Part shown: positions 6,806-62,115 of the stretch, in pieces | How the letters are laid out: every line of letters starts with the position of its first letter | Numbering within the stretch: the stretch's first letter is position 1 | Virus record (IMG/VR): IMGVR_UViG_3300009285_000507 | Span: 32,749-96,748 of that record | Reading direction: 5' to 3' (one strand) | DNA from: a virus | Taxonomy: Duplodnaviria > Heunggongvirae > Uroviricota > Caudoviricetes | DNA length: 64,000 nt | Program-made: the position numbers and the translations under genes | Notes under the pieces: generated by a model | The model's input: only the letters and a program-made list of their open reading frames with translations | Database searches by the model: none | What the model was told of the DNA's origin: nothing

Positions 6806-8842
6806 CTAGATCTCCACCTCGTATTTGCCACAAAGGATAATCTTGTCGCCATCGAACTCAACTGGAACTCCATCGGCATAGCTTGTGCCAACCGTGAAGT
6901 CGGCAGTCATTGGCAGCTTCCAGCCCTTGACACTGATCTCCATGTTCTTCTTGACCATCTTTGCCAGCTCAAGGAAGCGGTTAGGATCAGCTGGCACGGA
7001 GAAGTTAAACTCGTCGTGCACACACAGAAGAAGCTTGATGTCTTCATTGGTCATGAGGACATTGTTGTGGATACGATGCAAGGCCAGCTTGGAGATGTCA
7101 GCTGCTGTACCCTGGATAGGCGAGTTAATAATGGTACGCATTGCATAACCACGCCTGTCCTCACTAGCCAAGTCCTCATGAACCCAACGCTGCCGTCCAA
7201 AGTATGTCTTGACGTACCCGCACTTCTTTGCCTTCACAACTTCTCCTGCGTTCCACTTCTTGATCTCAGGGTACACACTCCACCACTTGTCAACGATAAC
7301 CTGGGCCTCTTCACGTGAGATTCCAAGGTTAGACCCTACAGTGCCAGCCCCGCCACCATAAGCAACCGCAAAGTTAATGGTCTTAGCAATGGTACGATAC
7401 TTCTTCTTATCTGTTTCGTACTCCGCACCAAAGAGCATCTTTGCTGTCTCTTCATGGATGTCTAAACCATTCTGGATGAAGTCAACCATCTTGCAACCAG
7501 TTAGGTTTGCTATGAGGCGAATTTCTTGGGCAGCGAAGTCACCATGGAAGAACAGTTCTCCAGGTTTAGCTTTGATGGCATGGCGAATGGAGTTCTTAAG
7601 ACTCAGTGCCTCAAAGTCGTAGTCATCATCGTGACCTACATCCTTATAGCCATACCCGAAGATGGGACCACCCTTGATCAGCTTGTACCGTGTAGGAGGT
7701 GTCTTAGGCATGTTCTGGCAATTGATGCTGGCAAAGAAGCTATTGAGCTTGTCACCACCACCTGCAAGGCGACCAGTGGCAGCTTCAGTTACCTTGTAGT
7801 TAAAATACACCCCGCCATTGTGCTTCTCTGCTTCCTCAATGAACGTGTCAACGTAGGTTCCCATAAGCTTCTTGAGACCACGTACCTCAAGGATACTGGC
7901 AACGAACGGGTAGTCCTTCTGCAGCGGGACAAGTGCTGCCTCACCTGTTGACATTGAACCCTTGTCTGTAACCTGCCCAGTGTTGATCCCAAGCTTCTTG
8001 AATACCTCAATGAGCTGCTTGGTTGACCCAATATTAAACTTGGAGCCAGCTGACTCATAGATTGATTCTTCCAGACGTGCCATGCGGCTCTCAAGCTCAG
8101 GCTTGTAGCTCTTGAGCAGCTCAACGTCAACTGGGATGAGCCCCTCCTCCTCAACCATCAAAGGAAGCAGACAGGCATTGTCAAGGTCAACCACGGTCTT
8201 GAGCTGCTTCTCGTATAGACCCTTGAACATCTCCCAGATCTGGAACGTGGCAGCAGCATCCATGCTAGCGTAGGACACCACATCCTTTGAGTCAATGTAG
8301 GAGATATCATGTGAATCACCAACAACGTCCTCAAAGTTCTGAAACTTCCACTTGAGAATATTCTCCATACACCACTTGAGACCAAGACGTTTAACGTTTG
8401 TATCAGCGTTCCACACCAGGAGTTGTGTGTCGAAGTACTTAACCTTAAATGGATCAAGTCCGCTGGACTCCCTCAGTATACGCATGTCAAACCTTGCATT
8501 GAAGAACAGAACCTTTGAACTTGCATATAGCATCTTGTTAAAGAACTTGCTGAACTTATTGAAGTCAGTGAAGTTCTCACCGACCTTATGGGAGATCGGG
8601 ATGTAATATGCTTTGTCAAGAGTAAAGCATAGTGAGATGCCTACAAGGCCAGCAAGCTTATGATTAAGATCAGTGGTCTCTGTATCAATGGCAATGATAC
8701 GCTGAGCCTCAGGCAATGACATGTATTGCTTACACACAGCCTTAATGGAATCCTCATCCTTGAGCATAATATACTGGGTTTTATCTTGAGCAATGAGTGG
8801 CTTAAGATTCTTCAGGTACATCGGGGTGTACTTCGCAAACAT
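6806..8842 (-). CDS. DNA polymerase I family (Pol A) with 3'-5' exonuclease domain
   Basis: Exo I AIDTETTDL. Motif A DFAAQEIRL. Motif B RTIAKTINFAVAYGG. Motif C CVHDEF. Length 678 aa. Confidence 0.9.
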   Translation of the reverse strand: MFAKYTPMYLKNLKPLIAQDKTQYIMLKDEDSIKAVCKQYMSLPEAQRIIAIDTETTDLNHKLAGLVGISLCFTLDKAYYIPISHKVGENFTDFNKFSKFFNKMLYASSKVLFFNARFDMRILRESSGLDPFKVKYFDTQLLVWNADTNVKRLGLKWCMENILKWKFQNFEDVVGDSHDISYIDSKDVVSYASMDAAATFQIWEMFKGLYEKQLKTVVDLDNACLLPLMVEEEGLIPVDVELLKSYKPELESRMARLEESIYESAGSKFNIGSTKQLIEVFKKLGINTGQVTDKGSMSTGEAALVPLQKDYPFVASILEVRGLKKLMGTYVDTFIEEAEKHNGGVYFNYKVTEAATGRLAGGGDKLNSFFASINCQNMPKTPPTRYKLIKGGPIFGYGYKDVGHDDDYDFEALSLKNSIRHAIKAKPGELFFHGDFAAQEIRLIANLTGCKMVDFIQNGLDIHEETAKMLFGAEYETDKKKYRTIAKTINFAVAYGGGAGTVGSNLGISREEAQVIVDKWWSVYPEIKKWNAGEVVKAKKCGYVKTYFGRQRWVHEDLASEDRRGYAMRTIINSPIQGTAADISKLALHRIHNNVLMTNEDIKLLLCVHDEFNFSVPADPNRFLELAKMVKKNMEISVKGWKLPMTADFTVGTSYADGVPVEFDGDKIILCGKYEVEI

Positions 8843-10895: not shown

Positions 10896-12095
10896 ATGAT
10901 CAAGACGCTTAGCACAACTGAAATTGAGACAATTGCGAGGCTCAATAATGTTGACCTAAGCCAGTGCCAGTCAATGCATGATAAGCTGTCCTGCGTTGTT
11001 ACAGATGAGCTGAACAGCCATCCAGAGCTAAGCTCCTACAAGAAGTACGCCCATCTGACTAGCCCAATGCTGTGCTACTCCTATTATGAGATGAACAAGA
11101 AATGCCAAGATGGTGTCTATGAGGATACTTGGGCATTTGAGTACAACATGGATGGACTACGTGGCTTTTTAGTGTATGACAGAGAAGGATTTAGTTTATT
11201 ACTCAGAGATAGAATAGGTAACGTATCTCTCCTACGTGAGACGGTAAATCCCAGGCTACCTTTGTTGCATAACCAACGCATCAAAGGTCTAGTGCTTGAT
11301 GTCAGAGTTGAGGTTGAGCTTATTGACCCATCAGAGATGGACAACAGGGTTAAAGGTACGTTCTCTGACATGTCTGAGTACACCAAGTTTATGCTTACAT
11401 GTGCTCCACGTAAAGTACGGTCCAAGGTAAATATACTTGACACACTCGTAGTTAATAGATCCTTGATAGCTAACAAGCCCTACATAGAGAGAACCCGCTA
11501 TACTGATGCTGTGTACAAGGATATGTGTCACTCACTTATACCGTGTATGGTTAGTAAGCGTTGCACCAAAAAAGAAGAAAAGTTATCCTTTGTATCAAAG
11601 GCGCACAGTTTAGGTTATAATGGTATCATAGCAAAGCAGTTATACAAATCGTACCTGAGCGACAACACTCGTAACAAGGGTGTCTGTGTTAAAAGAAAGC
11701 TCAGCTTCTCAGACATAACTGGAAGTGGTGTACTTGGTTACATTGATTCCCCTCTATATAATAAACATCATCACGTTAACGGCCTAAGAATCTATACGAA
11801 TGTATCAAATGGTGTACTGAAAAAAGATCAGTTTCTATGCACCCTAAAAGTTGGCAGAGAGCTAAGACATCTGTTCCAGGTTGAGACAAGTCACAAATGG
11901 TATGATTTCAACTGTGACTTAAAGGGATCAGTGATAGAGCTTGATGGCACCAAGTTCAAGACCAACGGTGAACTAGCGGATCCAGTATTTATCCGCATTG
12001 ATGAAGACAAGGTAAAGTCTGACTGCATCATAAATCAAAACTTCATGGATAGGTACAGAGATGAGCGACGAAAAAACTATAGACTACAAAGCTGA
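10896..12095 (+). CDS. ATP-dependent ligase/nucleotidyltransferase-like protein with substituted catalytic residues
   Basis: EYNMDGLRG resembles ligase motif I KxDGxR but has Asn in place of Lys. GLVLDVRVEV is motif III-like. YNGIIAK is motif IV-like with Asn for Glu. CVKRK is motif V-like. Length 399 aa. Confidence 0.4.
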   Translation: MIKTLSTTEIETIARLNNVDLSQCQSMHDKLSCVVTDELNSHPELSSYKKYAHLTSPMLCYSYYEMNKKCQDGVYEDTWAFEYNMDGLRGFLVYDREGFSLLLRDRIGNVSLLRETVNPRLPLLHNQRIKGLVLDVRVEVELIDPSEMDNRVKGTFSDMSEYTKFMLTCAPRKVRSKVNILDTLVVNRSLIANKPYIERTRYTDAVYKDMCHSLIPCMVSKRCTKKEEKLSFVSKAHSLGYNGIIAKQLYKSYLSDNTRNKGVCVKRKLSFSDITGSGVLGYIDSPLYNKHHHVNGLRIYTNVSNGVLKKDQFLCTLKVGRELRHLFQVETSHKWYDFNCDLKGSVIELDGTKFKTNGELADPVFIRIDEDKVKSDCIINQNFMDRYRDERRKNYRLQS

Positions 12096-12205
12096 GTCTG
12101 CTCCACCAGTGTCCTGCTCAAAGGTTGAGTATGCTACTACTAAGCTCATCATGAGTGCGAACAGAGCACCCTTTCAGAAGAGACTGCTGGAGCTAGTTGT
12201 AGGCA

Positions 12206-12898
12206 ATGATTGAGCTTATAAAGGTATCCAATAAGTCTTTCATACCCTACCTGTACCCAAAGTGTCTACTAGCGTACACATTAGCAGACATTTCGTGTCA
12301 TGATACTGTACTAAACTACACTCCTAACATGGGTTACATAATGTCAATTATCAAGGACAACAGGGACAGAGAAAGCAATCTTATCATAATATGTAATGAT
12401 GGTGTGTCTTCTGGGTATGTAGATCTAGACTCAAGAGACATCATGATCAACTATATCAAGACAAAGCTGGGTATGGCCATACATAAGAAGTACACAAAGA
12501 AGTTTGAGCTGATCAAAAATTTAGATAATAAGACCTACGAGAGGTTCATCAAGGAATCATTAGTACTTAAGAAATGGAAAATAGAACTACTTGAAACAAA
12601 GGATGAGATCTTCTCTTTGTTTGACACGTACACCAAGTCCAAAGAGGAGTTCATATCTAGCTATCTATCATGTAGTTATAAGTTTGGTGCAGCGTACTCT
12701 CTAGCATCACTATTAACGTTTCTAGAGAAGGCAGCAAAGTACAAAGACATAAAGCAAGACATGCGTGGAAGATATAGAAAATCTGTGCGCAAAGCCTCAG
12801 GACGTATGAAGAAACCGAAGGACTTTGCAAACAACCTTATACACTTAAATAGCGAGATACCGCTTGAACTAAAGGTGATACTCGCATATCTGCAATAG
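12206..12898 (+). CDS. hypothetical protein (230 aa)
   Basis: ORF following the ligase-like gene; no motif recognised. Confidence 0.45.
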   Translation: MIELIKVSNKSFIPYLYPKCLLAYTLADISCHDTVLNYTPNMGYIMSIIKDNRDRESNLIIICNDGVSSGYVDLDSRDIMINYIKTKLGMAIHKKYTKKFELIKNLDNKTYERFIKESLVLKKWKIELLETKDEIFSLFDTYTKSKEEFISSYLSCSYKFGAAYSLASLLTFLEKAAKYKDIKQDMRGRYRKSVRKASGRMKKPKDFANNLIHLNSEIPLELKVILAYLQ

Positions 12899-13223
12899 AC
12901 TACCTGGTGCGCATGCCGTGCGGCCAGGGTTAAGAAAGAGGGTGGTTAACAAGGGAGCAGCAAACAACTAAAACCAGAAGGGGTCAGATGTGGGGCTGTG
13001 TACATGTTCTAATGGAGTGGCTTATCCTGACTGGGGCGAAGTAACCGATCAACACCTGAGAGTACTTCAAACCACATGAGGTTATCAATGATCCCAAAGG
13101 ACACGATAATCTCGAGCTACCTGTAACTATGTATTTACCTCACGCGACCATACTACTAGTTAACATTTACAATAAAGGTTGGCTAAGGCATTAGTCACTT
13201 CTTATTGGGTAGGCAGACGACGA

Positions 13224-13267
13224 CTATAATAGTAATAATAATAATTATAGCTATAGATAATAACAAG
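13224..13267. repeat. 44-bp AT-rich direct repeat, copy 1
   Basis: CTATAATAGTAATAATAATAATTATAGCTATAGATAATAACAAG. Near-identical second copy 217 bp downstream, inside a 690-bp ORF-free region. Confidence 0.7.
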
Positions 13268-13440
13268 ATAGAATGAATGATTAGGTACAATATGGACTGT
13301 ACCGCGTATGGATCCGCAGTGGTCCACAAACGAGCCGGTGGGGTAATCTCACCAAGAGAAAGTTAAGGAGGGCATCAAAGGTTAGTTGAAGTAGATCAGA
13401 ATACTAGTTACTATATATATTATTCTTTCTACTTACTAAA

Positions 13441-13486
13441 CTATAATAGTAATAATAAAAAATAAAGCTAAAGATAATAACAAGCG
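13441..13486. repeat. 44-bp AT-rich direct repeat, copy 2
   Basis: CTATAATAGTAATAATAAAAAATAAAGCTAAAGATAATAACAAG. Confidence 0.7.
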
Positions 13487-13591
13487 CAGTTTTTTAACTC
13501 TACTTTGTTGTTATCTAAGACTAAGTTGCTCTCCTTCAAAGTGTTACAGTAGATAACCCTTTGATGCGAACTAAAAAACAGGGGTGGGAAT

Positions 13592-14278
13592 ATGAAACTA
13601 GCGGTAGAGTTGGATATTGCCAGCGGAGATTGTGTGTCCGCTTGTAAGGAAGTTGGCGCAACTGTATGTGTCCATGAAATCAAAGCATGTGATCATAGCC
13701 TGAAGAACCCTTCAGTACTGAATGAACTAAAAAAGAAAATACTCAGTTTGGGGCAGAATGGTATCGAGGTTGTATTTAGTGCCTCAGACTATGACCTTGT
13801 TTGCGACTCACGTAAGGAACCACATCACCTAGCCAATGTGCGCTCAGCACTGTGTGCAGCTAAGTACTGTGGGATCCGAACGTTCATCCTTGCTGCAGAC
13901 AATAACATTACTGATGATATTGGGTACAAGTCACTATATGCTAATATCTCCAGGGTGATGCGTGACGTACCATTGTTTCTTCATATCAAGGCATCCGGTA
14001 GCACAGACCCAAGCTTGCTGTTCCGGCACATGCAGCCTATCATTGAATTCAAGTCAGCTGGTATTATGGTAGATGCTGCTGTTAAGTCTAATGTACCTAT
14101 TATTGGAAGCTGCTCGGCAGTGTGTATACCTTACTCGTTTAACCCCAGTAAGCTAGCTAAAGAGGACCTCCACGAGCTTTGTACAAGTCTTAGCTATTAC
14201 AATGGTTGTCTCATCTTCAGTGGTAAGCATAAGAATCCAGTGTCAAGGGCTTTAAAGCTGAAGGAGTTAGTGGTATAA
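13592..14278 (+). CDS. hypothetical protein (228 aa)
   Basis: ORF with GTGGGAATATG start context after the long non-coding region; alternating beta/alpha character, no firm motif. Confidence 0.45.
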   Translation: MKLAVELDIASGDCVSACKEVGATVCVHEIKACDHSLKNPSVLNELKKKILSLGQNGIEVVFSASDYDLVCDSRKEPHHLANVRSALCAAKYCGIRTFILAADNNITDDIGYKSLYANISRVMRDVPLFLHIKASGSTDPSLLFRHMQPIIEFKSAGIMVDAAVKSNVPIIGSCSAVCIPYSFNPSKLAKEDLHELCTSLSYYNGCLIFSGKHKNPVSRALKLKELVV

Positions 14279-16408: not shown

Positions 16409-17407
16409 ATGGCAAAGAAGAGTGCTGACACTATTAGTAAGAGTGGGGCTGATATCTACAAGAAGATGGCTGCTAAGTACCCATCCCGTCTACAGTGCAG
16501 ACGTATTCCTTTGACGGACAAGGCACTGAATGATGGCTTCGGTGGTGGTTACCCAATGGCCAAGCAGGTTATGTTATACAGCCGTGAGGGTGTTGGTAAA
16601 ACAAACGTAGCCCTTGCCATCTGTAAGGCATATTGTGACGCTGGTTATGCTGTGGTCTACATGGACTTCGAGAACTCTCTAGTTGAGTCATTGATTGAGA
16701 ATTTCGGTCTTACTCAGTATGAGGGTACCCTGTTCTTTCTTCACCAGGATGTCCATACTTACACGGACTTCCAGAACATGGCAGATGCATATCTGGACAT
16801 GGAGAATCTTGGACTCATTGTTATTGATAGCGAATCTGACATTGTACCGGATCAGGTTTGCGACGGTGACATCCAGGATATCCAGCCAGGTTTGAAGTCA
16901 CGGCTGACATCAAATATTCAGATGAAGTACAACAGTCAGTGGCGTAGTCGTGACATTGGTATCCTGTGGATCCAGCAGATGCGGGCCAAGTTTAACTTTG
17001 GCTTCGCTCCTCCTGGGGCTCGTACAGAGGAAGCAGCTGGGGCAAAGTCACTGAAGTTCGCTCTTGATGTTCAGGTAGAACTACGTGTTAAGAAGCAGCT
17101 ATCACACGCAGATACAACTGTGTATGGTGCAGACATTTCATTCATCTTTGACAAGAACAAGACGGCACCACGTAAGAAGGTTGAGTCAACTATTATCTAT
17201 GGTCATGGCTTTGATCCACTTGCGTCACTGACAGCTGCACTGACTGAGTTCGGGTACTTGAAGCAGGACGAAAAGCTTTACGAGCTGCACTGCTTGCTTG
17301 AAGACAAGATCATTAAGTTTAAGAGTAGGACTGCTTTGTACAAGTACTTTAATGACAACATGAACAAGATTCTAGATCTGCTGAAAGAGAAGCACGGAGT
17401 AGAGTAG
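16409..17407 (+). CDS. RecA/UvsX-family recombinase
   Basis: GGGYPMAKQVMLYSREGVGKT gives the Walker A in RecA context. VYMDFENSL parallels RecA AFIDAEHAL. Length 332 aa. Confidence 0.6.
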   Translation: MAKKSADTISKSGADIYKKMAAKYPSRLQCRRIPLTDKALNDGFGGGYPMAKQVMLYSREGVGKTNVALAICKAYCDAGYAVVYMDFENSLVESLIENFGLTQYEGTLFFLHQDVHTYTDFQNMADAYLDMENLGLIVIDSESDIVPDQVCDGDIQDIQPGLKSRLTSNIQMKYNSQWRSRDIGILWIQQMRAKFNFGFAPPGARTEEAAGAKSLKFALDVQVELRVKKQLSHADTTVYGADISFIFDKNKTAPRKKVESTIIYGHGFDPLASLTAALTEFGYLKQDEKLYELHCLLEDKIIKFKSRTALYKYFNDNMNKILDLLKEKHGVE

Positions 17408-27912: not shown

Positions 27913-30309
27913 ATGTCACGTATACTTGGTAATATTACTGCTAATGATTCTGTATTCAATAACTTAACAGCTACCAACACTGTTAACCTTGCTACAGTTA
28001 TTATGCAAGATGTGTCGGTTAATGGAAGACTTGTTGCTGCTGATTTATATGTTGCAGGTGACGTTGTAACAGTAAACAGTATTGAGATTAGTGGTAATCT
28101 ACATGCAAGCGGTAACACTGTTCTCGGTGATGAGCCTTTTGATACACTAACAGTTAATGGAAACTCCTACTTTGCTGATACAGTTAACATTATTGGTTTA
28201 CTTGATGTCCATACCATTAGCCACAATGGTGGTGTAACATTTAACACTCCTATCAATGCTGTTGATATGGTAATTGAAGCCGGTAACATTGATGCAAGTG
28301 CAGTTGACAATCTTACTCTTCAGGGTTCAAACGGAGTAAAGATTGAGATTGTTGGTGGGGATGACCTAATTAACCTTGTATCACCTCTGGTAAGTATAAA
28401 CTCAACGCTTGACGTTGCTACTATTAGTCATAGCGGTAATATTGACATTGGTGGTACATCAACCGTGTCAATTATTACTCTGTCAAACAACGCTGGTTCT
28501 GTTATTAAGTTGTGGGATGACAGTGGTATTGAGTTAAATGCTGCTAGTTATATTGACCTAAACTCACCTTTCGTAAACATTACAGCAAATGGTACACTAG
28601 ACGTAGCCACCATTGCTCATACAGGTAACATCCTTATCGGCAGCGGCGACGGCTACACCATTGACATGAACTATGACTCAGATAGCTTCGCAGTTTCTTA
28701 CCCCTACATTAACCTTAATGCAGAGATTGTTACTGTCACCACAAATGGTGTTCTCGATGTAGCCACTATTAGCCATCTGACAAGCGAGATGCAAATTTCA
28801 GCTAACCTTCAGATTACAGGAGATAATGGTAATGTTCGTATCACTGATGAAGGCATTATCCTATCATCAAATGTAGCTACAACTACCTCTATTATTGGTG
28901 GTGCACTTGACGTAGCTACTGTTAGCCATAACAGTACCATTAATCTGACAGCGGCAAACTTCAATCTAAATGCAGTGTCAGCAGAGCCAACATCACTAGC
29001 TCTTGGTGATGATGGCTGGGCTAATATTTCAGCTAAGAACGGTATCAACTTTGACGTTGCCTCAGGTTCTATTGAGGTTAATATTACTGAAGACCTAATT
29101 GAACTCAGTGGTAACACTGCTATTGCTGGCACTCTTGATGTAACCACTGTATCACACAATGGGCAGATAGGGATAACAGCCACAGAGGTTCAAATATGGG
29201 GTAACGTAGGGGCACAGAACAACACAGACGAGTGGAGAGTTTACAAGATTCTAATGGGTGGTGGTGGAGATACCCTACAAGTAGGCGAGGGTAACACAGC
29301 ACTTCTGTTTGATCTTGGTACAAATACTGTGACACTAACCGCAAATGGTACCCTGGATGTAACCACAATATCACATAGTGGTGGTACCAATGTAGTAACA
29401 GGTATAACACTAAATCAGGGTATGCAGATAGAGGGTACAGGCAATGGCTATGGATTTCAGTTTGGCGCAAATGACAATGCCATTCTATTTACAGACCCAG
29501 GAATCATAACGCTAAGGGCAGAGGATAGTATTGAGTTGTTTAGTGATGTTCTAATATCTGCTAACAAGTCCTTGGACGTAGCTACCATCTCCCACCTATC
29601 AAGCGAGATGCAGATTTCAGCTAACTTGCAAATCACTGCCGATAACGCAAATGTTCGCTTCACTGATGAGGGGATTGTTCTTTCTTCTAACTCCGCTACG
29701 AGTACTTCGATTATAGGTGGCGCACTTGATGTAGCCACAATTAGCCACCTAACAAGTGAGATGCAGATTTCAGCCAACATTCAGATTACAGGTGACAATG
29801 GCAATGTACGCATCACCGATGAAGGTATTATTCTATCGTCCAACTCTGCTACTTCAACTTCTATTATTGGTGGTGCTTTAGATGTAGCTACTATCAGTCA
29901 CTTATCGGGAGAGATGCAGATTTCCGCTAACCTGCAAATCACGGCTGATAATGCAAATGTGAGGTTCACAGATGAGGGTATTATATTCTCGTCCAATGCA
30001 GCTACAACCACCTCTATTATTGGTGGTGCACTGGATGTAGCTACCGTGTCACACAACGGTGGAACTACGTTTAACACTGGGGTAATGATTGAGGGGGCAA
30101 GAGTTTCACGCACCTATGAATCACCTAACCTCACAGCCAATACATTCTACACTGTTAACCATGCTCTTGCTGTAGCGTATCCCCAGGTAACAGTTATCTC
30201 AAACAATGAAGTTGTAATTCCTTGGAAGGTTAGTTACAACGATACAAACAATGTAGTGGTTGATTTCAGTGGTAACACTGTTAATTGCTATGTGACAGTG
30301 GTAGGGTAG
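27913..30309 (+). CDS. tail fiber/receptor-binding protein with tandem roughly 50-aa repeats (798 aa)
   Basis: At least four near-identical copies of LDVATISHLTSEMQISANLQITGDNGNVRITDEGIILSSNSATSTSIIGGA plus degenerate LDVxTxSHxG units. Confidence 0.55.
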   Translation: MSRILGNITANDSVFNNLTATNTVNLATVIMQDVSVNGRLVAADLYVAGDVVTVNSIEISGNLHASGNTVLGDEPFDTLTVNGNSYFADTVNIIGLLDVHTISHNGGVTFNTPINAVDMVIEAGNIDASAVDNLTLQGSNGVKIEIVGGDDLINLVSPLVSINSTLDVATISHSGNIDIGGTSTVSIITLSNNAGSVIKLWDDSGIELNAASYIDLNSPFVNITANGTLDVATIAHTGNILIGSGDGYTIDMNYDSDSFAVSYPYINLNAEIVTVTTNGVLDVATISHLTSEMQISANLQITGDNGNVRITDEGIILSSNVATTTSIIGGALDVATVSHNSTINLTAANFNLNAVSAEPTSLALGDDGWANISAKNGINFDVASGSIEVNITEDLIELSGNTAIAGTLDVTTVSHNGQIGITATEVQIWGNVGAQNNTDEWRVYKILMGGGGDTLQVGEGNTALLFDLGTNTVTLTANGTLDVTTISHSGGTNVVTGITLNQGMQIEGTGNGYGFQFGANDNAILFTDPGIITLRAEDSIELFSDVLISANKSLDVATISHLSSEMQISANLQITADNANVRFTDEGIVLSSNSATSTSIIGGALDVATISHLTSEMQISANIQITGDNGNVRITDEGIILSSNSATSTSIIGGALDVATISHLSGEMQISANLQITADNANVRFTDEGIIFSSNAATTTSIIGGALDVATVSHNGGTTFNTGVMIEGARVSRTYESPNLTANTFYTVNHALAVAYPQVTVISNNEVVIPWKVSYNDTNNVVVDFSGNTVNCYVTVVG
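28741..30060 (+). repeat. tandem roughly 150-bp coding repeats within the fiber gene
   Basis: Near-identical DNA blocks at about 28755, 29575, 29725 and 29875. Further degenerate copies lie between 28180 and 29400. Confidence 0.7.
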
Positions 30310-35986: not shown

Positions 35987-36442
35987 ATGAAGAAACTGTT
36001 GGGTTTGGTTCTACTCTGTGCTATTCTAGCTGCTCCAGGATGTGTTGGTACAAAGTACTATATTCAGGATGGTCAGGTAACAAACAAGTTTCTGCAGGTT
36101 AGCACTAATACCATGATGACCACACGTGCTACATGGTATAATACCCAAGATGCATTTGCTAAAGCAAAGATTGCTGGTATGATGACAGATGCACAGTGGA
36201 ACAGTTGGAGTTCAGTTGATGCTAAGTTCAGAGCATCTCAGAATGCATTAACAGAGGTATTAAAGGTTTACGCTGGGATGTTACAGCAGCTTGCTACGGC
36301 AGATCAGGCTGGAGATGCAGCATCAGTATCACAGATTGAAAGTAAGATGTCAGCTAAGGAAGCTCTTATTAATTCAGCACTTGCAAACATCACAGGTATT
36401 CTTGTTGAAGGGCAGAATCTTCTTACTGCCGTCCAACAGTAA
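35987..36442 (+). CDS. secreted protein or lipoprotein (151 aa)
   Basis: Signal peptide MKKLLGLVLLCAILAAPGCVG with Cys at the end of the h-region (imperfect lipobox). Confidence 0.45.
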   Translation: MKKLLGLVLLCAILAAPGCVGTKYYIQDGQVTNKFLQVSTNTMMTTRATWYNTQDAFAKAKIAGMMTDAQWNSWSSVDAKFRASQNALTEVLKVYAGMLQQLATADQAGDAASVSQIESKMSAKEALINSALANITGILVEGQNLLTAVQQ

Positions 36443-36645: not shown

Positions 36646-36819
36646 ATGAACTGTTGTGGTAACAACGAAGGTTGGTGCAGGAAGGATACGTGCGCTTGTG
36701 ACAAACATGTATGTGCATTGTTCGAAGACACAAGAACACCTGGAGTAAAGCGTTGTACTGAGTGTGGCAAGCTATATAGTACAGAGTCAAACCAATCCGT
36801 CAGCGTGAAGCTAGGGTAA
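36646..36819 (+). CDS. small Cys-rich protein (57 aa), not in ORF track
   Basis: MNCCGNNEGWCRKDTCACDKHVCALFEDTRTPGVKRCTECGKLYSTESNQSVSVKLG. Stop embedded in the terminator stem. Confidence 0.3.
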   Translation: MNCCGNNEGWCRKDTCACDKHVCALFEDTRTPGVKRCTECGKLYSTESNQSVSVKLG

Positions 36820-36838
36820 CCCCCTAGCTTCTTTTTTT
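36807..36838 (+). terminator. rho-independent terminator
   Basis: GAAGCTAGGG-TAAC-CCCCTAGCTTC followed by TTTTTTT. Confidence 0.7.
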
Positions 36839-36840
36839 CC

Positions 36841-41552: not shown

Positions 41553-43034
41553 ATGGCAAATCACACACAGCTAGTTGAGCAGGGTTGCAAAGCTGCCAAC
41601 AGCAAATTCAAGAAACACCTGGAAGCAGTCCAGAGCTTCTACAAGACAGCTCATGGCCGCAACCTACCTGAGAACGTTGAAGCAGTTCTAGGGCAGTGCC
41701 TCACCAATACCCAGGCTTACTTCGAAGGGATTGCAAAGAAACGCGGTTACCTAAAGACTGAAGGGCTAACCACTTCAGACCTAGGCACCTACATTCGTCA
41801 TGGTTTCGAGCTGATCAGCGCACTGATCCCAAGCTCAATCCTAGACGACATTGTTAGCGTTCAGCCTATGGATCGTAAGACTGGTCAGGTCTTCTGGCTA
41901 GACTACCAGTATGAAACAGGCCAGGGTATCATTCGCCCAGGCGACACAATGTTCCATGCACAGAAGGTTACTGGTCTCCGTAACAATGGTAATGCCTATA
42001 AGTACTTCAGCTCAGACATCGTTCAGGGCGAGCCTATTGCAGCCTTTGGTGCAATTGGTACCAACTATGAACACAGCTTCGAGCATTTCCCATTCAAGAC
42101 TGGGGCTACTGTTACTGTTGGTTACTGGGATGGTGCAGCTGTTCGTACCTTCACTGGCACTGCAGCAGCTAGTTCATTCACCATCACTGATGGCGTTGAC
42201 ACAGTAACAATCGTTCATGACAACACCCAGGCAATTGGTACCTTCAACGTTGGTGTTGCGTTCGTTCCTCAGACCAATGCACTAACAGTTGCAAGCTATG
42301 AGTTCGACTTCGAAAGTCGCCCAGCCAACACTGGCCGCGTGAAGCTCGCAATCCGTGAGGCAGTCGTGGTAGCACAGAAGCGTCAGCTAGCAATGAATTG
42401 GTTGCTTGACTCAGCATTCGAACTAGAGCAGCACTATGGCAAGAGCATTGACGACGAAGCAATCGCAATTCTCGCCGGTGAGCTCCGCGCCGAAATCGAC
42501 CAGCTAGTTCTGGACGACATTATGGCACAGGCTCCTGCATCAACTCTAGCCGGTGCAGACCGCTTCCTAGCAGCTAACCCAGTGTTCATCAGCGAAATGG
42601 AACGCGCCCAGGACTTCGTGAAGCATCTACAGCGCGAAAGTTCACAGATCTACAAGACCACACGGCGTATCCAGGGCACATGGCTGGGTGCAGGTAACGA
42701 AGTTTGCAACCTGATCATGTCAATGCCTAACACAATGTTCAAGGTTGAGAACAACGGCATGCAGCCACCTACAGGTCCACACAAGGTTGGTCGGTTGATG
42801 GATCGTTGGGACATCTACCGTAACCTAGCGTATGGTGACAATGAGTATGTCATGGGCGCAAAGGGTAACAGCTGGATCGAAGCCGGTTATGCATGGCTTC
42901 CATTCATTCCAATCATGGTCACTGATCCATATCCAGTAGGGAACATGGAATATGAACGTGGCGTGATCACAAAGAATGCCCAGACAATGCTGAACGACGG
43001 CTTCTTCGTGAAGAGCAGCATCCGGTGGGTGTAG
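41553..43034 (+). CDS. putative major capsid protein (493 aa)
   Basis: Follows the scaffold gene with a long leader, GGGAGAACACAGATG start context, and a strong terminator downstream. Shares an N-terminal motif (VSVQPMDRKTGQVFWLDYQY) with the ORF at 61705. Confidence 0.5.
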   Translation: MANHTQLVEQGCKAANSKFKKHLEAVQSFYKTAHGRNLPENVEAVLGQCLTNTQAYFEGIAKKRGYLKTEGLTTSDLGTYIRHGFELISALIPSSILDDIVSVQPMDRKTGQVFWLDYQYETGQGIIRPGDTMFHAQKVTGLRNNGNAYKYFSSDIVQGEPIAAFGAIGTNYEHSFEHFPFKTGATVTVGYWDGAAVRTFTGTAAASSFTITDGVDTVTIVHDNTQAIGTFNVGVAFVPQTNALTVASYEFDFESRPANTGRVKLAIREAVVVAQKRQLAMNWLLDSAFELEQHYGKSIDDEAIAILAGELRAEIDQLVLDDIMAQAPASTLAGADRFLAANPVFISEMERAQDFVKHLQRESSQIYKTTRRIQGTWLGAGNEVCNLIMSMPNTMFKVENNGMQPPTGPHKVGRLMDRWDIYRNLAYGDNEYVMGAKGNSWIEAGYAWLPFIPIMVTDPYPVGNMEYERGVITKNAQTMLNDGFFVKSSIRWV

Positions 43035-43062
43035 TAGTTAGTAAGTAACTTGATTCAAATAA

Positions 43063-43096
43063 AGGAGCTGGGCGTAAAAGCTCAGCTCCTTTTTTC
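43063..43096 (+). terminator. rho-independent terminator after capsid gene
   Basis: AGGAGCTG-GGCGTAAAAGCT-CAGCTCCT followed by TTTTTT. Confidence 0.75.
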
Positions 43097-43112
43097 ATAG
43101 GTAGGAGCCCTC

Positions 43113-56729: not shown

Positions 56730-56746
56730 CAACACTGAGTACACAG

Positions 56747-56778
56747 GGGAGGTGCCCATCAAGGCATCTCCCTTTTTA
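56747..56778 (+). terminator. rho-independent terminator
   Basis: GGGAGGTGCC-CATCAA-GGCATCTCCC (one G-U pair) followed by TTTTT. Confidence 0.65.
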
Positions 56779-56790
56779 CTTATACATTTA
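56776..56790 (+). promoter_or_regulatory. late-promoter-like motif TTACTTATACATTTA
   Basis: Directly after the terminator. Near-identical 35-nt block (TTTTACTTATACATT-ACA-CATAAC-AGTA-GAGG) repeated at 57766. Confidence 0.45.
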
Positions 56791-60027: not shown

Positions 60028-60098
60028 GGGCAGGTAGCTCAATGGATAGAGCACCACTGATCATGGGGTTGCGAGTTCAAGTCTCGCCACTCCCTCCA
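60028..60098 (+). ncRNA. tRNA-like element (degenerate; possible pseudo-tRNA or att-site remnant)
   Basis: Canonical 5' half GGGCAGG-TA-GCTC-AATGGATA-GAGC. Perfect T arm GCGAG-TTCAAGT-CTCGC followed by CACTCCC-T-CCA. The acceptor strands pair at only 4 of 7 positions. The anticodon arm is poorly paired and there is no room for a variable loop. Confidence 0.3.
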
Positions 60099-61704: not shown

Positions 61705-62115
61705 ATGTCCATTGTATCTAACGTTATAAGTACAGTAAACAACTATATAGAGTATACTGTTGAGAGAGTTACAGAAGCCGCTTTTGTCGGAGTATCCATG
61801 CTTACGCAAGCTCTAGGACCAAATACTAACAGAAGATACAGCCAGGAGTTCTGGAATAGTTGGTTGGAAGATGTTGTATCTGTCCAGCCTATGGATCGTA
61901 CTACTGGTCAGGTCTTCTGGATGGACTATAGGTATGGGTCTGATGATACTTACCTTGGTCAGCAGGGTAGCTTTCTCAATATATGGAATGGTCACACAAT
62001 GCAGCGTGTGTTCATCAATAAGATTGTTGGTGAGGATATAAAGTATAGGATTATAAGGCTTAATGAGTACGTGAACAAAGAGGATATGAGTAAGTACACT
62101 AAGCAGTTGAGGTAA
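61705..62115 (+). CDS. small protein sharing the N-terminal capsid motif and the C-terminal VNKEDM family motif (136 aa)
   Basis: VSVQPMDRTTGQVFWMDYRY matches VSVQPMDRKTGQVFWLDYQY in the 41553 gene. C-terminus RLNEYVNKEDMSKY. Confidence 0.45.
   Translation: MSIVSNVISTVNNYIEYTVERVTEAAFVGVSMLTQALGPNTNRRYSQEFWNSWLEDVVSVQPMDRTTGQVFWMDYRYGSDDTYLGQQGSFLNIWNGHTMQRVFINKIVGEDIKYRIIRLNEYVNKEDMSKYTKQLR

Follow-up and report, generated by a model that had tools for sequence, protein, structure and literature searches.

Gene-free gap with a duplicated AT-rich module in the replication region of a groundwater phage, tentatively read as a promoter-plus-unwinding control region

Iteron origins, among them lambda ori and those of the plasmid and P4 type, have three to six close, helically phased repeats of 17-22 bp together with an adjacent or enclosing initiator gene, and their repeated boxes adjoin easily melted AT-rich DNA. 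In phage T7 an AT-rich stretch adjoins the primary origin. The primary origins of this phage consist of the tandem promoters phi1.1A and phi1.1B, and a promoter is essential in every T7 origin (PMC8373140). The minimal origins oriF (uvsY) and oriG (34) of phage T4 consist of a sigma70-like -10 element without a -35 element, followed by an A+T-rich unwinding element of ~40-50 bp (PMC3016281).

The locus described here is a gap without genes in a 64-kb stretch of phage DNA, which was analyzed as a whole and is referred to as the window. The gap contains a direct repeat, each copy of which (a module) has a -10-type hexamer without a -35 element followed by an A+T-rich stretch, as in T4 oriF and oriG, and the phage resembles T4 in having clamp-loader, UvsX-like and gp46/47-like genes nearby. 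Unlike T4, it has a family A polymerase, no MotA-box-like activator site is definable at the modules, and there are two tandem copies of the module with a spacing of 217 bp. With T7 the locus shares two tandem promoter-like elements that are intergenic, lie in the early/replication part of the genome and are associated with AT-rich DNA, whereas T7 has a single-subunit RNA polymerase and 23-bp promoters that recur genome-wide and the module is unique to its locus. The repeated boxes next to easily melted AT-rich DNA are a likeness to iteron origins, but neither a close, phased array nor an initiator gene is present. Like ordinary phage promoter and 5'-leader regions, the locus combines a -10 hexamer with AT-rich DNA at the presumed start and with a stable hairpin close to where the leader of the downstream gene is predicted to begin; it differs from them in that the module lacks the extended -10 (TGG or TAG) of this phage and lies unusually far from a gene.

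According to a greedy gene map, 0.95 of the 64-kb window is coding, and the gap is its longest stretch free of open reading frames (ORFs), with 693 bp against 199 bp for the runner-up. An initial annotation of this DNA had described the gap as an ORF-free block, and this was borne out: no ORF of at least 30 aa was found on the + strand (the longest had 29 aa), those on the - strand did not exceed a chance-sized 44 aa, and stop codons were abundant in all three + frames. The best small ORFs in the gap, of 18-29 aa, had no convincing ribosome-binding site. Six-frame translations of the gap showed no Pfam remnant, and comparisons with the genes that relatives carry in the same slot (tblastn) and with the remainder of the window (tblastx) yielded noise only, so that no residual protein similarity points to a pseudogene or decayed gene. 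Read-through from, or an N-terminal extension of, the flanking genes was rejected because of stop codons within 16 codons. A group I or group II intron splitting a gene was also rejected, since the upstream protein aligns with its homologs to the C-terminus and a separate ribosome-binding site precedes the downstream gene. The description of the block as AT-rich was correct for one part of it. The whole gap has a GC content of 39% as compared to 44% for the window, and this content is uneven, with 28% at 13400-13599 and 50% in the 5' 200 bp. The 5' 320 bp (12899-13220) are most likely an untranslated spacer with a 3' stem-loop. The gap is a real and cleanly delimited feature and most likely of an ordinary kind, a non-coding AT-rich control region in the replication module. 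The features of the locus are listed in the table.

Table. Coordinates of the gap, its elements and the flanking genes (positions in the window)
Feature	Position	Strand	Description
Upstream flanking gene	12206-12898	+	230 aa, clamp-loader-subunit-like (AlphaFold model and Foldseek)
Whole ORF-free gap	12899-13591		Flanked by the clamp-loader-subunit-like and the Endo IV-like gene
GC-rich stem-loop	12903-12928	+	11 bp, one bulge, triloop; 5 nt past the stop codon, no U-tract; -16 kcal/mol
Repeat copy 1	13223-13267	+	Box A 13223-13241 (TATAAT 13225-13230), variable centre 13242-13254, box B 13255-13267
Inter-repeat segment	13268-13439	+	172 nt; three short GC hairpins at 13284-13353, orphan AGGAGG; fold z -1.4, not significant
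Repeat copy 2	13440-13484	+	Box A 13440-13458 (TATAAT 13442-13447), box B 13472-13484
Inverted third copy of box B	13504-13516	-	Two mismatches; pairs with copy-2 box B (13472-13516)
Translation start of the downstream gene (G-rich ribosome-binding site AGGGGTGGG and ATG)	13579-13594	+	
Downstream flanking gene	13592-14278	+	228 aa, xylose-isomerase-like/Endo IV-like TIM barrel, low confidence (single-sequence model)

The initial annotation had noted two near-identical 44-bp repeats 217 bp apart. They are indeed present and slightly longer, 45 nt each, with 41 of 45 positions identical and a start-to-start distance of 217 bp. The longest exact repeat had 19 nt, as compared to a maximum of 13 nt in 200 shuffles of the gap, and within the window both the exact 19-mer and the 19-nt 3' half of the repeat occurred at these two sites only (0.02 expected). 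The repeat halves were also absent from ~18 kb of further genome of the same phage, so that ~82 kb of 139.5 kb were covered in all. Pattern scans of IMG/VR and JGI metagenomes for the module gave only chance 19-mer matches or none. When the two 217-bp units were aligned, similarity was sharply confined to the 45-mer and the flanks were unrelated; the segment 13268-13439 was dissimilar to the sequence after copy 2. The sharp borders and unrelated flanks of a non-random, window-unique repeat argue that the 45-mer itself is conserved and that it does not stem from a recent tandem duplication of 217 bp.

Each copy has three parts. Box A is an exact 19-nt sequence (ACTATAATAGTAATAATAA) that starts with the palindrome ACTAT-A-ATAGT and includes TATAAT, and box B is an exact 13-nt sequence (AGATAATAACAAG). 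The copies differ at four places (repeat positions 20, 23, 26 and 32), each with T in copy 1 and A in copy 2, and all of these lie in the central 13 nt. With the inverted copy, box B is present three times within 262 bp, two copies being direct and one inverted. The box B of copy 2 and the inverted copy form a 13-bp hairpin, which as + strand RNA has a folding energy of -13.9 kcal/mol (z -2.6; 2/200 shuffles); this hairpin is better on the + strand, where both mismatches become G-U wobbles, than on the - strand, where they are mismatches or bulges. Two known kinds of repeat were considered and rejected. The template/variable repeat pair of a diversity-generating retroelement was suggested by the position of all four differences at A in copy 2, but no reverse transcriptase is present, neither copy is coding, and such a pattern is to be expected when the sequence has 60% A. 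A CRISPR mini-array or solitary repeat units would need repeats of 23-47 nt with spacers of ~26-72 nt; the copies have a suitable length, but they are separated by 172 nt and contain only 16% GC.

Nearest-neighbour duplex stability was computed along the whole 64-kb window. The two least stable 50-bp duplexes were 13412-13461 (dG -47.1 kcal/mol) and 13224-13273 (-48.1), so that the repeat sites lay ~5 sd below the window mean of -66.5 (sd 3.9), and the next least stable 50-bp stretch had a value of -52.0. The least stable 100-bp and 200-bp duplexes of the window were 13381-13480 and 13378-13577, respectively. Copy 1 lies within the second least stable 50-bp duplex and copy 2 overlaps both the least stable 50-bp and the least stable 100-bp duplex. 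As the repeat sites are the stability minima of the window, they are the places where the double helix opens most easily in 64 kb. The 38 nt after each TATAAT contain six G/C, a composition that qualifies as an AT-rich unwinding element, and the melting minimum at the repeats looks like a DNA-unwinding element or a strong promoter region.

To place the TATAAT of the repeat among the promoters of this phage, two recurrent motifs have to be described. The extended -10 sequence TGGTATAAT occurred at seven sites, 3966 and 9260 on the - strand as well as 10868, 14271, 22716, 36134 and 62833. Six of the seven copies were located 6-40 nt upstream of a start codon and oriented with the local genes, and the copy at 36134 falls inside ORF 35987-36442. 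For TGNTATAAT, nine matches were found as compared to 2.9 expected, and no shuffle attained nine. TGGTATAAT probably represents the host-polymerase (early) promoter class of the phage. The second motif, (A/T)GTAGTAYAATRT, was intergenic and upstream of late-region genes on the + strand (51780, 55919, 57257, 58536 and 61114), which makes it a candidate late promoter class.

Both repeat copies contain a perfect TATAAT, in the contexts GACTATAAT and AACTATAAT. This hexamer is preceded by GAC or AAC and, unlike the two recognizable classes of the phage, has neither a -35 element nor a TGG or TAG extension; the extended -10 TGn of the TGGTATAAT class is thus missing. The distance from TATAAT to the next ATG is 367 nt for copy 1 and 150 nt for copy 2, whereas the other promoters are situated 6-40 nt upstream of genes. 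In DNA with 12-16% GC, TATAAT is not improbable by chance. No further copy of the module was found in ~82 kb of the 139.5-kb genome, which rules out a general promoter class. If the TATAAT of the repeat is a promoter, it is of a different class, which is probably factor-dependent. Upstream of the Endo IV-like gene neither recognizable promoter class is present, and the next TGGTATAAT overlaps the 3' end of this gene at 14271. Lacking a recognizable promoter, the gene has to rely on read-through from 10868 or on transcription that begins within the gap.

The placement of the gap between ligase and recombination genes, as given in the initial annotation, was confirmed, with the ligase at 10896-12095 (PF01068) and a RecA/UvsX-like gene at 16409-17407. 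Left of 10.8 kb the genes run leftward and include polymerase A, a primase-like zinc ribbon, tRNAs and an amidase. Rightward from 10.9 kb follow the ligase, a 50-aa ORF, the 230-aa ORF, the gap, the 228-aa ORF and two small proteins; next come a 349-aa acidic protein, HU, the RecA/UvsX-like protein, SbcC/SbcD-like proteins, a Toprim protein and a clamp-loader AAA+ protein, and then the structural genes. No gene of the window was identified as a phage RNA polymerase. The same proteins were found on ~24 groundwater-metagenome contigs, including contigs of 139,048-139,741 bp (PRJNA268031, PRJNA292723 and others), and the gene arrangement was the same on all 24 contigs read. As the proteins are identical and the contig end points differ, the phage has a circularly assembling genome of ~139.5 kb and is present in many samples.

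The 230-aa protein upstream of the gap had 26 distant full-length homologs, in which W124 and Y190 are invariant; the family, whose members have ~230 aa, had no Pfam, PHROG or NCBIfam model, and the alignment of the homologs proved too divergent to be used in locus scans. With this alignment as input, AlphaFold gave a model with a mean pLDDT of 86. Its best Foldseek matches were human RFC and E. coli gamma/delta', with T4 gp62 further down, at probabilities of 0.97-0.99 and low TM-scores. On the basis of this model, we read the protein with moderate confidence as a degenerate clamp-loader subunit. For the 228-aa protein downstream of the gap, a search of 5.8 billion proteins returned no protein other than itself. 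Its single-sequence model (pLDDT 59) had alternating beta and alpha elements, and the best-matching folds were 4ovx, 3tva and the ASFV AP endonuclease 6khy. The Pfam family PF01261 (AP_endonuc_2) was present in its positional counterparts on contigs L012 and L015, and the direct sequence match was suggestive only. In the predicted structures of the two flanking proteins, neither an initiator fold nor a transcription-factor fold was found. As a separate observation, the third-position AT skew of the ligase and the 230-aa ORF (10896-12898) was -0.06 and +0.13 as compared to a mean of -0.21 (sd 0.13, 51 + strand genes). The codon usage of the two genes was atypical for the phage; with two genes, too few for the purpose, the third-position skews are uninformative.

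The gap showed no similarity to any of 50,697 phage records (megablast and blastn). No close GenBank phage relative of the window was found by megablast, the DNA polymerase A was at most 30% identical to any record, and the flanking and neighboring proteins revealed no close relatives in IMG/VR and JGI. Apart from the phage itself, the search of 5.8 billion proteins retrieved one syntenic contig of 6 kb and one weak RecA-family match (30% identity). The synteny of this contig (L012, 6.1 kb) with the window starts at the Endo IV-like gene and continues to the right, with six genes at 29-42% amino acid identity, and a different gene ends 8 bp before its Endo IV-like gene. Homologs of the 230-aa gene were present on six other contigs, five of which include downstream DNA. 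There, the next gene follows after 2 bp (L013), 2 bp (L014), 4 bp (L015), 100 bp (L016) and 47 bp (L017), and on L015 five genes are located between the two anchor genes (274 aa, UDG, NUDIX, 63 aa and 58 aa). Since the downstream gene is 2-100 bp away in five relatives and five genes occupy the slot on L015, the slot is variable and its 693-bp non-coding filling is lineage-specific; neither the relatives nor the public collections searched contained a homologous non-coding region. A protein-coding gene at this position in related phages was one of two findings that the initial annotation had named as speaking against its proposal. It was formally obtained for five distant relatives, and it carries little weight because these share only 22-38% amino acid identity.

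In our preferred reading, to which we assign a rough probability of 0.4, the gap is a control region specific to this lineage and built around a duplicated module that unites promoter and unwinding element, in the manner of T4 oriF or T7 phi1.1A/B. In the broader sense, a regulatory region is the most likely category for the gap. A module would consist of the exact 19-nt box with its -10-type TATAAT in a small palindrome, ~13 nt of freely variable A/T and the exact 13-nt box. RNA polymerase would open the duplex at each module and start rightward transcription, probably aided by a factor of the phage or its host that recognizes the boxes. Module 2 would give rise to a leader of ~140 nt for the Endo IV-like gene, and possibly for genes beyond, which would begin with the 13-bp stem-loop, while module 1 may produce a non-coding leader of ~200 nt or be just a second start. 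Since a promoter with an A+T-rich unwinding element is the minimal design of T4 oriF and oriG, and tandem promoters make up the T7 primary origin, the modules could also prime DNA replication, which would proceed via an R-loop. Judged by these analogies, transcription initiation would be the more conservative function of the modules and R-loop priming of replication a possible second role. The analysis shows that genes are absent, that the repeat has its box structure and coincides with the melting minimum, that the hairpin is present and that the gap is lineage-specific, whereas promoter activity, factor binding and any origin function are inferred. It is doubtful that the modules represent a new kind of phage replication start, that is, tandem factor-dependent promoter-plus-unwinding elements with an R-loop-primed leading strand, in an orphan 139.5-kb groundwater phage that combines a family A polymerase with T4-like clamp-loader and UvsX/gp46-47-like recombination functions.

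An origin with iterons had been proposed in the initial annotation. A classical replication origin, at which an initiator would bind the repeated boxes (two direct, one inverted) and melt the adjacent AT-rich DNA, draws on the coincidence of the window's melting minimum with the repeats, the three box B copies within 262 bp and the position of the gap in the replication module, 2.1-2.8 kb from the strand switch and skew minimum. The adjacent AT-rich unwinding element of iteron origins is thus present, in the form of the least stable 50-, 100- and 200-bp duplexes. However, the gap contains no array of at least three closely spaced, helically phased direct repeats (~17-22 bp); the two full copies are 217 bp apart and the third copy of box B is partial and inverted. 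DnaA boxes (TTATNCACA, at most one mismatch) were absent from 12899-13591, and the window as a whole contained 75 as compared to 82 expected. Neither of the adjacent genes, clamp-loader-like and Endo IV-type TIM barrel, resembles an initiator gene, and distant relatives have no counterpart of the locus. The cumulative GC-skew minimum was located at ~10.7-10.8 kb, at the transcription strand switch and not in the gap. A minimum elsewhere was the other finding that the initial annotation had named against its proposal; it also weighs little, because the skew is confounded by gene orientation. Taken together, the iteron proposal does not hold, and we consider a classical origin unlikely at this locus. 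Alternatively, the gap may be a functionless leftover in a variable slot, made up of gene DNA that has decayed or been replaced and of which a short AT-rich part was duplicated by chance. The five genes in the slot on L015 and the gene within 2-100 bp on L013, L014, L016 and L017 are in line with this, as is the 5' 320 bp, which has a coding-like GC content and purine skew yet no ORF. Against it, no similarity is left to the genes of the relatives, to Pfam families or to other parts of the window, and the 24 contigs read agree in their gene arrangement. Moreover, a duplication that decayed neutrally would not be expected to retain sharp borders and two exact boxes around a variable centre. We regard a mere leftover as improbable.

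The possibility of a non-coding RNA had also been raised in the initial annotation. Small RNAs near replication genes occur in phages, and one or more RNA genes could reside here, for example an RNA of ~200 nt from module 1 that contains the three GC hairpins and the AGGAGG and acts as a regulator or decoy. A possible promoter is located in front of it (13225-13230), the three hairpins are compact, and the AGGAGG is exposed. The initial annotation was right that this AGGAGG (13366-13371) is not followed by a start codon; it is unremarkable, because the window contains 24 AGGAGG as compared to ~31 expected by chance. In a search with Rfam 15 at the gathering threshold, no covariance model matched in the gap, and the only matches elsewhere in the window were three tRNAs, one of which, a tRNA-like element at 60028-60095 (35 bits), was missed by ARAGORN. 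A permissive Rfam search of 12700-13800 (E up to 10) gave only noise at 15-23 bits as compared to cut-offs of 39-95, and ARAGORN found no tRNA or tmRNA in the gap. RNA folding of the whole region, of its halves and of 100-nt sliding windows on both strands resulted in ordinary z-scores, the lowest being -2.5, and the inter-repeat fold was likewise ordinary. The structure-prone 5' part that had been noted does contain the stem-loop at 12903-12928, but this is not unusual (z -1.6; ~50 other sites in the window are equally strong). It was rejected as a canonical terminator, since it is followed by GTTAAGAAAG without a U-tract and the terminator scan was empty; it is possibly a 3'-end stabilizer. 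The scan found no intrinsic terminator anywhere in the gap 12899-13591, and canonical U-tract terminators are present elsewhere in the window, at 36805-36840, 43060-43098, 56740-56781 and around 2000. No terminator thus closes the putative RNA, and homologs that could show covariation are lacking. With this evidence the RNA proposal is unsupported, and an RNA gene in the gap is very unlikely.

If the modules are promoter-plus-unwinding elements, as we prefer to read them, a transcription unit would begin at them, and possibly replication as well, in a phage lineage that has hardly any relatives; in the search of 5.8 billion proteins, the neighboring genes were shared by one 6-kb contig only. 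This would aid the annotation of the temporal programme of the lineage and provide a defined element of 45 bp. Taken by itself, an AT-rich control region without genes is nothing unexpected in the replication module of a phage, and the value of the analysis lies mainly in the correct annotation of the gap, which contains no gene and no known RNA and is not an iteron origin.

Three further observations were made outside the gap. About 2.1 kb past the right end of the window (contig L021, ~7075-7677), another ORF-free stretch of ~600 bp contains a G-rich tract and two strong hairpins, AACCCCGCC...GGCGGGGTT and ACAATGCCGTCAATG...CATTGACGGCATTGT, and had no Rfam match. ORF 27913-30309 (798 aa, function unassigned) contains four copies of a 183-nt coding repeat at 28746-30053, which are 72-80% identical and of which three are arranged in tandem with 153-nt spacing. 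Finally, a 70-nt direct repeat with 79% identity links 41844-41913, within the major-head-protein gene (41553-43034), to 61867-61936, within ORF 61705-62115, which suggests that the latter ORF may be a partial paralog of the capsid gene.
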